This document shows positions 38,078-41,596 of a stretch of DNA of 64,000 bases, piece after piece (the stretch's first letter is position 1; the number at the start of each line of letters is the position of its first letter). A program made the position numbers and the translations under genes. The notes beneath the pieces were generated by a model that worked only from the letters and a program-made list of their open reading frames with translations, made no database searches and was not told where the DNA came from. The DNA is from Bradyrhizobium sp. GTDB taxonomy: Bacteria; Pseudomonadota; Alphaproteobacteria; Rhizobiales; Xanthobacteraceae. The stretch is taken from positions 4,979 to 68,978 of the forward strand of contig NZ_DATEPI010000104.1 in NCBI RefSeq assembly GCF_035273305.1. Reading direction: 5' to 3'.

Positions 38078-38536
38078 TCAGCGTCCGGTCGAACCAAATC
38101 CGCCGCCGCCGCGTTCGGTCGAGGACAGCGACGTCGTCGCAACCAGTTCCGCCCTCACCACGGCCGCGATTACCATTTGCGCGATCCGCTCGCCCCGCCG
38201 AATCGCAAACGGCGCGTCGCCGTGGTTGATTAGGAGAACGGTTATCTCGCCGCGATAATCCGCATCGATCGTGCCGGGGGCATTCAGCACGGTGATGCCG
38301 TGCTTTGACGCGAGTCCCGATCGTGGACGAACCTGCGCCTCGGTGCCTCCGGGCAAGGCCACCGAGATGCCCGTCGGCACCAATACGCGCTGGCCCGGCG
38401 ACAGAGTTATCGGAGAGTCCTCCGGGACGGCAGCGAGCAGGTCGAGTCCGGCGGCGTGGGCGGTCTGATAGGCTGGCAGCATCAGGCCCTGGCCGTGCGG
38501 CAGCCGCCGCACCTCGACTTTGATGGCTGAACTCAC
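38078..38536 (-). CDS. dut: dUTP diphosphatase
   Basis: [37 protein letters not shown]; GTG start overlaps the coaBC stop. Confidence 0.97.
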
Positions 38537-39969
38537 GATTTTCCTCCGACGGTCTCGGCGATGCGCGCGACCAGCGCCGTGGCAACTTCCTGTTTGGTCA
38601 TCACCGGCCAGGAGTCGACTTTGATTTCCCCATCCACGCGGCTCAGCAGATGGACCGTATTGCGGTCGCCGCCCATAACACCCGTATCTGGTGAGACATC
38701 GTTGGCGACGATCCAGTCGCAGCCCTTGCGGGCCAGCTTTGCTTTGGCATTCTCGATCAGCATTTCGGTTTCGGCGGCGAAGCCGATCACGAGCTTTGGG
38801 CGGCCGTCCTTCAATTTTGAAATCGTTGCGAGGATGTCTGGATTTTCGATCAGTTGCAGTGGGGGCATGCCGGCGGAAGTCTTTTTTAGTTTCTGCTCGC
38901 CCTGCTCCGCAACGCGCCAGTCAGCGACAGCCGCCGCGAAGATCGCGATATCCGCGGGAAGAGCGGCTTCCACTCGCCGCAGCATGTCGCGCGCGGATTC
39001 CACATGCTGGACTTTAACGCCAGGGGGATCATCGATATCGACCGGACCGGAAATCAGCGCGACCTCGGCTCCGGCAGTAGCTGCCGCAGCGGCGATCGCA
39101 AACCCCTGTTTCCCGGAAGAGCGATTGGCGATGTAGCGTACCGGATCGATCGGCTCGTGGGTGGGCCCTGCGGTAATGAGAACGCGCTTTCCCGCCAGCG
39201 GTTGCGGCTGCGCCCGATGCAGCAGGCGCTCTGCTGCGGATGCTATCTCGATCGGTTCTGCCATCCGCCCGAGGCCCGCCTCCCCCGCTTCTGCCATTTC
39301 GCCAGTGTTGGGTCCGACCAATGCGACACCGTCCCGTTCGAGCTGGACGACGTTGCGGCGGGTAGCGGCGTTGTTCCACATCAGAGGGTTCGTCGCCGGC
39401 GCGAGCAGGATCGGACGATTGGTGGCGAGCAGAATGGCACTTGCGAGATCGTCGGCAAGACCATTTGCCATCTTCGCCATCAGATCCGCGGTGGCCGGCG
39501 CCACGACAATCAGATCGCACTCGCGCGCCAGCCGGATATGGCCCGCGTCGAACTCGCTTTGCGGGTCGAACAAATCTGTGTAGCAGCGCTCGTTCGAGAG
39601 CGCGCTTGCGGCAAGCGGAGTTACAAATTGCTGCGCCGCTTTGGTCAGCACGCACCGGACGCGGATTCGCCGCTCTTTCATCCTGCGGATCAGGTCAAGG
39701 GCCTTATAGGCGGCAATGCCGCCGCCGATGATCAGTGTAACCCGAGCCTTGTCGAACACGTCAGGGCGGCTTGGGCCGCGCATAGATGCCTGGACAGGGC
39801 GTGGAATGGCTTGCGGCTGCGTGGCTTCGAATTCGTAGGGCACACCTTCTATGGTTTGCCGCAGGATTACCCGGACCTCCTCCTCGACAGAACGGCCATT
39901 CTTGGCCGAACGAAGCCGCAGATAGGTCTTGATGGTCTCGTCGAGCTTGCGGATCGTTATGCTGGCCAT
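38533..39969 (-). CDS. coaBC: Bifunctional CoaBC (Dfp) with N-terminal FitA/Arc-like RHH domain
   Basis: CoaC: [26 protein letters not shown]. CoaB: [48 protein letters not shown]. Residues 1-42 are RHH-like. Confidence 0.95.
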
Positions 39970-39985: not shown

Positions 39986-40024
39986 TGATATCAATGATAC
40001 CACATTTTGCAATCATTGCAATCA
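39986..40024. promoter_or_regulatory. Four-box operator-like array overlapping a predicted coaBC promoter
   Basis: TGATATCA(39986)-A-TGATACCA(39995)-CATTT-TGCAATCA(40008)-T-TGCAATCA(40017). Minus strand gives TTGCAA(40021-40016)-N16-TATCAT(39999-39994) with extended -10 TG. Confidence 0.7.
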
Positions 40025-41596
40025 AAGCTGGCGCACCGCAAACAGGATAGCGATGAAGGTCGCGGCGATCACCCAAAGCGCCAGCGTACGCCACCGGCTC
40101 TTCCGGCCCTCGGTTCGTCCCATGGCCGCAATCGTTTCGGGCGCCAGTCTGAGACCCTCGCGGCTCATGGTCTCCATCTGCTCGATCACGGCAACCGAAC
40201 GCGCCGCAATGGTCGGCAGGCCGCTCATGACGCGGCCGAGTTCGCCGGCGCCGGACAGCGCGCCTTGAATGCGGCCGACCGGCCCGAGGTTGCGCTCGAT
40301 CCATTCGCGAACCACGGGATCGGCGATTTTCCAGATATCAAGTTTCGGGTCGAAGCTGCGGGCAACTCCCTCGACCACGACCATGGTCTTTTGCAACAGG
40401 ATCAATTCAGGCCGGGTGCGCATGTCGAACAGGCCCGTGACCTCGAGCAACAGCGTCAGCAACTTCGCCATTGAGATATCTTCGGCAGTGCGGTTGTGTA
40501 TCGGCTCGCCGATCGCGCGGATCGCCTGAGCAAAATTCTCGACCGAATGATGCCCCGGCACATAGCCGGCCTCGAAATGCACCTCCGCGACGCGCCGATA
40601 GTCCCGGGTGATGAACCCGAGAAGAATCTCTGCGAGGAAGCGCCGCTCCTTGCCGCCGAGTCGGCCCATAATGCCAAAATCCACCGCGACCAGGCGGCCG
40701 GCTTCATCAAGAAACAGATTGCCCGGATGCATATCGGCATGAAAAAAGCCGTCGCGCAAAGCATGGCGCAAGAAGCTCTGGATCACCTTGCGCCCGAGGT
40801 CCGGCAGATCCACGTTCGATTGTGCCAGGCGCGCATGGTCGCTGAGCGCGATGCCGTCGATCCACTCCATGGTCAGCACGTTGTGGGTAGTGCGATCCCA
40901 ATCGACGGCGGGCACGCGAAAGTCCGGGTCGTCGCGCGTATTCTCCGCCATTTCCGAAAGCGCCGCGGCTTCCAGCCGCAGATCCATCTCCATCGCAACC
41001 GAGCGCGACATGGTGTTGATGACTTCGACCAACCGAAGCCGGCGCGCCTCCGCCGAATAAGTTTCGGCGTTGTGCGCGACAAAGAAAAAGTCGCCGAGGT
41101 CGCGACGAAAGCGTGCGGCAACGTTGGGCCGAAGCACCTTGACCGCCACCGGTTTGCGCACGCCATCCTGCTCGGTTTCAGCGCGATGTACTTGCGCGAT
41201 CGAGGCCGCGGCCACGGCAGGACCAAGGCTTGCAAATGACAGGGCCAGCGGTCGCTCCAGCGACTGCGCGATGACGGCCTCGGCCTCGCTTTGCGAGAAC
41301 GGCGGCAGCCGGTCCTGCAAGCTTTCCAGATCGCGCGCCATCGCCACGCCGACCACATCGGGGCGCGTGGCTAGAAATTGGCCGAGCTTCAGATAGGCTG
41401 GCCCTAGCCGCGTCAATGCGCGCGACAGCCGCGGGCCGGATTTCGCGCCGGGACGCTCGATAATACGCGCCAGTCGCAGTGCCAATTGCCCGGGCGGAGG
41501 CACCAGTGACGGATCGACAACGCCGAACACGCCCTCGCGCGCGAATACGAAGCCGGCGCGGGCCAGCCGCGCGATGTGGGTCAACGCCGAGATCAC
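40022..41596 (-). CDS. ubiB: Ubiquinone biosynthesis kinase-like protein
   Basis: [47 protein letters not shown]. Confidence 0.96.

Follow-up and report, generated by a model that had tools for sequence, protein, structure and literature searches.

CoaBC of Bradyrhizobium and related genera carries a FitA-type antitoxin domain and is most likely an enzyme-repressor fusion

Introduction

Why should an enzyme of coenzyme A biosynthesis begin with a domain of the DNA-binding type? The question is raised by the coaBC gene on a stretch of 64,000 nucleotides of DNA from Bradyrhizobium sp. (referred to as the window in the following), whose product carries an N-terminal extension ahead of its catalytic domains. 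An initial annotation of this DNA had described the extension as a ribbon-helix-helix (RHH) domain of the FitA/Arc type. Precomputed Pfam annotation reveals this architecture, but the names supplied by the source say plain CoaBC, and no description of a CoaBC or phosphopantothenoylcysteine enzyme in connection with a ribbon-helix-helix or an antitoxin was found in the full-text literature. Apart from feedback on the enzymes, little is known about how CoA biosynthesis is controlled at the level of transcription. The data presented here indicate that RHH-CoaBC is most likely a fusion of enzyme and repressor, derived from an antitoxin head that has been domesticated.

Results

Domain architecture of RHH-CoaBC

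The open reading frame at 38533..39969 on the minus strand encodes a single protein of 478 amino acids in a frame free of stops and frameshifts, and represents the sole coaBC of its genome (one match in G000). The following parts are distinguished:

39844..39969, minus strand: RHH domain, codons 1-42 of coaBC (PF22513; best PDB match FitA; helices predicted by AF2; dN/dS 0.22)
39748..39843, minus strand: linker rich in Pro, Gln and Ala, predicted to be flexible, codons 43-74 (pLDDT about 30; dN/dS 0.61)
39220..39747, minus strand: CoaC, phosphopantothenoylcysteine decarboxylase, a flavoprotein, codons about 75-250 (PF02441; TIGR00521; dN/dS 0.14)
38533..39219, minus strand: CoaB, phosphopantothenate-cysteine ligase, codons about 251-478 plus stop (PF04127; dN/dS 0.15)

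The residues assigned to an RHH domain in the initial annotation are exactly those of codons 1-42 (39969..39844), and the profile search suggested there bears out the assignment to a FitA-like RHH. Residues 2-39 match positions 1-38/39 of the Pfam profile PF22513 (FitA-like_RHH) with 55.1 bits (E 7e-15), or with 58.8 bits if the N-terminus alone is used as query, compared to a curated gathering cut-off of 27 bits. The top PDB sequence match for the first 72 residues is FitA (2h1o/2bsq), aligned over residues 2-38 with an E value of 0.02. Of the proposed order of a strand, helix A, a G-R-S turn and helix B, the turn and the two helices are recovered: the putative strand region (about residues 3-8), with S3, T5 and R7, shows an alternation of polar and hydrophobic residues in its sequence (S3-L/I4-T5-I6-R7), the turn is formed by G25-R26-S27, and a full-length AF2 model (mean pLDDT 66, calculated from a shallow alignment) predicts helices at residues 11-24 and 28-40 as well as a Rossmann strand starting from residue 75. 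As expected, the RHH strand is modelled as coil or helix in the monomeric AF2 models, because the partner chain is absent; it is turned into a helix in the model of the RHH monomer alone, which has a pLDDT of 87. A Foldseek search of the RHH model against the PDB gave no significant match, and CopG superposes on the model at 0.3-1.2 Å over 32-33 residues.

The linker of about 30 residues leads into the CoaC fold in an uninterrupted frame, as had been described before, and its segment 46-73 is modelled at a pLDDT of about 30 in the full-length prediction. For the enzyme part, Pfam assigns residues 76-244 to PF02441 (Flavoprotein/CoaC, 103 bits) and residues 258-442 to PF04127 (DFP/CoaB, 239 bits), and the NCBIfam equivalog TIGR00521 (coaBC_dfp) covers both domains over residues 75-470 with 393.8 bits, compared to a cut-off of 219.7. 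The CoaC domain of the window contains the motif PATNPLMW (39390-39413, minus strand, in the region of residues 186-193), which reads PAMNPLMW in at least 90% of 34 close orthologues; this exchange of Met for Thr falls into PxMNxxMW, which we take to be a signature of the flavoprotein family.

Distribution of the fusion

All 23 genomes of the same genus that gave a match contain the fusion (23/23), the match spanning residues 1 to 134 in one open frame. In a family-wide sample, it is present in 85 of the 148 genomes with a match, corresponding to about 31 of 52 genera and to sequence identities down to 49%, and the named loci include those of Bradyrhizobium, Tardiphaga, Rhodopseudomonas, Nitrobacter, and Afipia. 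The CoaBC matches from 16 other families of the order begin only at about residue 65-75, none of them showing the fusion, and no fusion was found among 400 other genomes of the class (295 genera). A miscalled start codon or an assembly artefact is excluded, because the fusion is conserved across species. The phylogenetic distribution, which had been named in the initial annotation as a further check, supports the assignment by the occurrence in about 31 genera and by the purifying selection described below. In a tree of the CoaBC sequences, the fused state is clustered, with the window placed in a clade of 17 members that are all fused (support 100/98). Loci with an intact toxin-antitoxin (TA) module and empty loci are interspersed elsewhere in this tree, in which the well-supported branches force at least three changes of state and the deep nodes are unresolved.

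Start codon and probable expression as a single polypeptide

The possibility of a translation start at an internal methionine of the linker (Met63) had been raised with the initial annotation, but appears unlikely and was rejected, as Met63 is not conserved among the orthologues and most of them lack a start codon before the CoaC fold. Of 81 fused genes, 47 lack any ATG, GTG, or TTG within the 16 codons that precede the CoaC strand, and just three possess such a codon together with a Shine-Dalgarno sequence. Because the native coaBC start codon has been lost in most fused species and coaBC is a single gene, the enzyme can only be produced there as a fusion. The Shine-Dalgarno sequence ahead of the ATG in the window is weak (GGA at -13), and strong ones were observed in only 37 of the 81 orthologues. 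A GTG is located seven codons ahead of the CoaC strand in the window.

Transcript and protein data are available for the fused orthologue of B. japonicum USDA 110, bll0759, a protein of 483 amino acids starting with MASLTIRKLDEHVK... (PMC4842269). All 12 peptides detected from bll0759 are located after residue 102 (PMC4842269). None of them falls within residues 1-102, which include the RHH, a result that we count against our preferred interpretation. The peptides released from the RHH by trypsin are, however, too short for N-terminal proteomics. The dRNA-seq table lists no internal sense transcription start site (TSS) for bll0759 (PMC4842269).

These data bear on an alternative in which the RHH is separated from the enzyme, either by proteolytic cutting of the linker or by internal initiation or a stop codon, resulting in a free RHH repressor next to an ordinary CoaBC that never comes into contact with the DNA. 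A split of this kind would agree with the poor conservation and the low-confidence prediction of the linker, with the GTG in front of the CoaC strand of the window, with the missing peptides from residues 1-102 in strain USDA 110, and with the single genome carrying an in-frame TAG in the linker (L302/G169). However, the in-frame fusion has been kept in about 85 genomes, and a stop codon, which would be cost-free if two products were made, is found in only one of them. The 47 of 81 genes devoid of an internal start, the mere three with a Shine-Dalgarno sequence and the lack of a listed internal sense TSS in USDA 110 also argue against a split product, and tight binding by an antitoxin RHH on its own usually depends on a partner. 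Separate RHH and CoaBC proteins are therefore considered unlikely.

The TAG in locus L302 (G169:C12), which belongs to the fused type, follows ...RSAVRGGG in the linker and is not succeeded by an obvious restart codon before the CoaC strand; the gene could be genuinely split or a pseudogene, or the TAG could stem from an error in sequencing.

Origin from a toxin-antitoxin module

A view on the corresponding locus in relatives without the fusion reveals where the RHH domain comes from. At four loci (L081, L083, L084, and L325), all of them unfused, the gene order is ubiB, a stand-alone FitA-like antitoxin, a PIN toxin and coaBC; one of these (L081) belongs to Methylopila turkensis, a member of another family. 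The stand-alone antitoxins at the locus consist of 81-93 amino acids from the RHH start and match PF22513 with 63-70 bits, and the PIN toxins consist of 139-145 amino acids and belong to PF01850, their stop codons overlapping or abutting the coaBC start in the four TA-state loci. The RHH domains of these four loci are 50-69% identical to that of the window, and the same box arrays that are described below for the coaBC promoter occur in their three-box form upstream of the antitoxin in intact TA modules. The stand-alone antitoxins carry a C-terminal tail of 40-50 amino acids (e.g., ...AIVDPIGGFEIELPERTEG...); this toxin-binding tail is absent in the fusion, where an unconserved Pro/Ala-rich linker takes its place. 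No cognate toxin gene follows the RHH in the window, where CoaBC is joined to it in frame. In the genome of the window, a tblastn search with three PIN toxins of the locus type retrieved no PIN homologue at E values up to 1e-3, and no second FitA-like RHH was found.

The comparison of these loci shows that a fitA-PIN module of the FitAB/VapBC-like type with its own promoter and boxes once sat between ubiB and coaBC, to which it was translationally coupled, and that the toxin and the toxin-binding tail of the antitoxin were lost in a large part of the family, the RHH being joined via a linker to the start of CoaBC. One further locus (L326, G075:C154) has retained the full 93-amino acid antitoxin, while its PIN gene has been cut to an in-frame remnant of 34 codons (VIVLDTNVVSELMNPASTGAGVEIIDPWTVSSAP) by an internal deletion; it is a snapshot of toxin loss at the coaBC locus. 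The boxes upstream of this locus look degenerate. The PIN family is a mobile one, and TA modules are rarely located at coaBC: a search with a PIN alignment identified 80 widely scattered PIN genes, and coaBC was found downstream only in Methylopila turkensis.

Candidate operators in the coaBC promoter

The genes ubiE, ubiB, coaBC, and dut follow each other in this order on the minus strand, and the coaBC-dut order is also found in relatives and in USDA 110 (bll0759-bll0758). The features around coaBC are:

40022..41596, minus strand: ubiB, upstream neighbour of coaBC (from the ORF list)
40008..40024, minus strand: candidate operator site 1, TGATTGCA-A-TGATTGCA, two 8-bp boxes, top PWM match of the whole genome
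39986..40002, minus strand: candidate operator site 2, TGGTATCA-T-TGATATCA, beginning 22 bp after site 1
38078..38536, minus strand: dut (dUTPase), GTG start overlapping the coaBC stop by 4 nt (from the ORF list)

Because of its overlap with the coaBC stop, dut is regarded as the second gene of a putatively regulated operon. The spacer between ubiB and coaBC has a length of 52 bp and holds both 17-bp candidate operator sites, which are composed of 8-bp boxes with the consensus TGATWGCA. Site 1 contains a -35-like TTGCAA (40021..40016), and site 2 a -10-like TATCAT (39999..39994) with an upstream TG, and the resulting sigma-70-like arrangement TTGCAA-16-TATCAT overlaps both candidate sites.

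Two 17-bp sites spaced by 22-23 bp were recognized in 75 of 81 fused loci and in 67 of 80 in a second set. The information content amounts to about 2 bits at most box positions vs about 0-0.7 bits at most flanking positions, the values within the sites being somewhat inflated because the sites were picked by pattern. Of the fused loci examined from other genera, all but one have boxes as well (39/40), often as three contiguous ones in the form TGATTGCA-T-TGATTGCA-A-TGCAATCA with a -10-like GCTATA behind them, and R. pseudopalustris (L412) even exhibits four 17-bp sites. Of 18 relatives lacking the RHH, 16 showed no such site upstream of coaBC. When the whole genome was scanned with the PWM, the coaBC site ranked first and no other intergenic operator pair emerged; a wider regulon was rejected on the grounds that the genome has no second pair. 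No recognizable boxes were found within 110-150 nt upstream of three fused loci, L398 and L400 (Rhodopseudomonas palustris JSC-3b and R. faecalis) and L305, whose operator may be located further upstream or may have diverged. The operator pair is shifted to -113 and -135 at two loci (L016 and L050, from Bradyrhizobium australafricanum and B. macuxiense) by a hairpin-forming insert of about 60-80 bp between operator and ATG (GAGCATGATC...CCGGAAAA...TTTTCCGGATCATGCT), which looks like a small repeat element.

The start of transcription in USDA 110 was compared with the position of the boxes. The TSS of the bll0759 gene was mapped by dRNA-seq to position 813828 (-) and classified as primary, with scores of 0.68 and 0.74 vs a cut-off of 0.4 (PMC4842269), and an antisense TSS at 813802 (+), about 26 nt from the gene TSS, is classed as lying inside bll0759 (PMC4842269, Table S3). 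As the antisense TSS lies within the gene, the 5'-untranslated region before the RHH start codon comprises at most 26 nt. Site 2 is located at about -37 to -21 in close relatives of USDA 110, which means that the start mapped in USDA 110 lies within site 2 or directly behind it, as would be expected if the TAGCAT present there is the -10 element. The palindromic operator region may fire in both directions.

Operator box 1 begins with the stop codon of ubiB (TGA, 40022-40024). No terminator-like site was found between ubiB and coaBC; transcription of ubiE-ubiB may continue into coaBC, and a repressor bound to the DNA could also form a roadblock.

Constraint on the RHH domain

By the Nei-Gojobori method, 76 complete orthologues gave dN/dS ratios of 0.22 (RHH), 0.61 (linker), 0.14 (CoaC), and 0.15 (CoaB), and the linker varies in length and sequence among the orthologues. 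Among 34 species whose synonymous sites are well diverged (pS 0.46), 19 of the 42 RHH residues are invariant, including M1, A2, T5, R7, K8, D10, L17-R20, G25, S27-E29, E31, R33, I35, and L36; for S3 and R26, the conservation amounts to 90% or more of the species. As judged from these substitution patterns, the RHH is under purifying selection.

An alternative is that the RHH is kept for a role outside transcription, as nucleoid tether, oligomerisation contact or antitoxin-type degradation tag controlling the turnover of CoaBC, with the boxes representing just the inherited promoter of the TA module. A degradation tag would fit the typical instability of type II antitoxins, which are substrates of proteases, and conservation of the promoter could account for some of the box conservation, since the -35 and -10 elements lie within the boxes. 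Against such a role, the conserved stretches are complete 8-bp boxes, arrayed in threes or fours at a fixed phasing of 9 bp or 22-23 bp, which is far more than two hexamers, the boxes are absent at 16 of 18 loci without RHH, and the invariance of T5, R7 and the G-x-S turn, together with S3 in at least 90% of the species, fits the reading of DNA; we consider it improbable that the RHH serves a non-transcriptional purpose. Still less probable is that the RHH is a neutral relic of the decayed TA module, carried along because an essential gene now has no other start codon or promoter: the N-terminal extension is not easily removable because the native coaBC start has been lost, and the linker shows relaxed constraint, but the RHH has a dN/dS near those of the enzyme domains and 19 invariant residues at a pS of 0.46, whereas a relic would need a start codon only and neither a preserved fold nor DNA-contact residues.

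Discussion

The RHH-CoaBC architecture proposed in the initial annotation is supported by our analysis, and the origin from a fitAB-type TA module and the conserved operator go beyond what had been described there. DNA-binding-type and catalytic domains are present in one polypeptide, with candidate sites in the promoter of its own gene. The conserved arrays of 8-bp boxes that co-occur with the RHH suggest that RHH-CoaBC binds DNA, and because the putative DNA target of the module has been kept in the coaBC promoter, the enzyme most likely represses its own gene. We consider it probable that RHH-CoaBC is an essential enzyme of the CoA pathway with a domesticated RHH head of a FitA-type antitoxin, which negatively autoregulates the coaBC-dut operon.

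A possible mechanism would start from RHH domains of neighbouring protomers pairing as dimers, with one TGATWGCA box recognized per dimer. The CoaBC oligomer would bridge the RHH dimers and provide avidity, replacing the PIN toxin of the TA complex in this function, and occupation of the four boxes would block RNA polymerase, so that coaBC-dut would be negatively autoregulated by the amount of CoaBC protein. CoaBC forms a dodecamer in mycobacteria (PMC7794376). CoaC is the core of this dodecamer (PMC7794376), which we count against the proposed explanation. The same applies to the weak Shine-Dalgarno sequence, to the strand missing from the monomeric models together with the Foldseek result, and to the few fused loci without recognizable boxes.

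In a more tentative extension, the CoaBC oligomer would not only replace the toxin as scaffold, but its DNA binding would also be tuned by bound CoA or acyl-CoA, CTP, 4'-phosphopantothenate or the state of assembly. CoA thioesters are known to bind to CoaB in mycobacteria (PMC7794376), which serves as a lead only for ligand-tuned repression, and we regard such tuning as possible, albeit rather doubtful. If it applied, RHH-CoaBC would constitute a direct sensor-effector for CoA homeostasis derived from a captured toxin-antitoxin regulatory circuit, and a worked example of an essential gene depending on the promoter and repressor of a selfish element.

The proposed autoregulation represents a concrete circuit for Bradyrhizobium, Rhodopseudomonas, Nitrobacter, Tardiphaga, and Afipia, genera which include widely studied model organisms. 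The series from an intact TA module via a gutted toxin to a fusion at one chromosomal site shows how a TA module can be domesticated, and how a downstream essential gene comes to rely on the module for its promoter, repressor head and start codon. If an enzyme oligomer can indeed replace the toxin as co-repressor scaffold, the problem that an antitoxin alone binds DNA weakly would have found a new solution.

Comparison with known systems

The closest relative of the RHH is FitA of the FitAB system of Neisseria gonorrhoeae (2h1o, 2bsq), which belongs to the same RHH family, PF22513 of the RHH/MetJ-Arc superfamily, and represents the best PDB sequence match. FitA homologues of relatives are encoded as stand-alone antitoxins followed by a PIN toxin, whereas the RHH is fused here, with no toxin gene adjacent or elsewhere in the genome and with the tail replaced by a linker and a 400-amino acid enzyme. 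The boxes of RHH-CoaBC are either adjacent, with a period of 9 bp, or arranged as two 17-bp pairs, in contrast to the Neisseria FitA operator, which we take to be TGCTATCA-N12-TGATAGCA, presumably with two half-sites 12 bp apart. Most Bradyrhizobium loci carry exactly the half-site assumed here for Neisseria, TGCTATCA, as the right half of their site 2. FitA dimers are known to bind the operator DNA and to be bridged and tethered by the toxin (PMC3920265).

Canonical CoaBC/Dfp proteins as in E. coli and Mycobacterium (PDB 6TGV) share the full CoaC and CoaB parts and the coaBC-dut synteny with RHH-CoaBC, for which a dodecamer is expected. They start only a few residues before the Rossmann strand and possess no DNA-binding domain, in agreement with the statement of the initial annotation that CoaBC of the E. 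coli type lacks the RHH. Cofactor-pathway enzymes with a DNA-binding domain that controls genes of their own pathway are represented by the biotin ligase/repressor BirA and by NadR. These contain winged-helix or HTH domains and respond to a known small-molecule co-repressor, whereas RHH-CoaBC employs an RHH of antitoxin origin.

The layout of RHH-CoaBC is shared with PutA from E. coli and Salmonella, in which an N-terminal RHH of about 45 amino acids is attached to an oligomeric flavoenzyme with sites in its own promoter. The N-terminal RHH makes this flavoenzyme an autogenous repressor of the put genes, and grafting this RHH onto an RHH-less PutA suffices for DNA binding with a Kd of 58 nM (PMC5293562). 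The two systems differ in the RHH family, the enzyme and the pathway, PutA being catabolic and CoaBC biosynthetic and essential. Moreover, PutA leaves the DNA for the membrane upon reduction of its flavin, whereas no such switch is indicated in RHH-CoaBC, and an antitoxin origin of the DNA-binding head is specific to RHH-CoaBC, unlike PutA.
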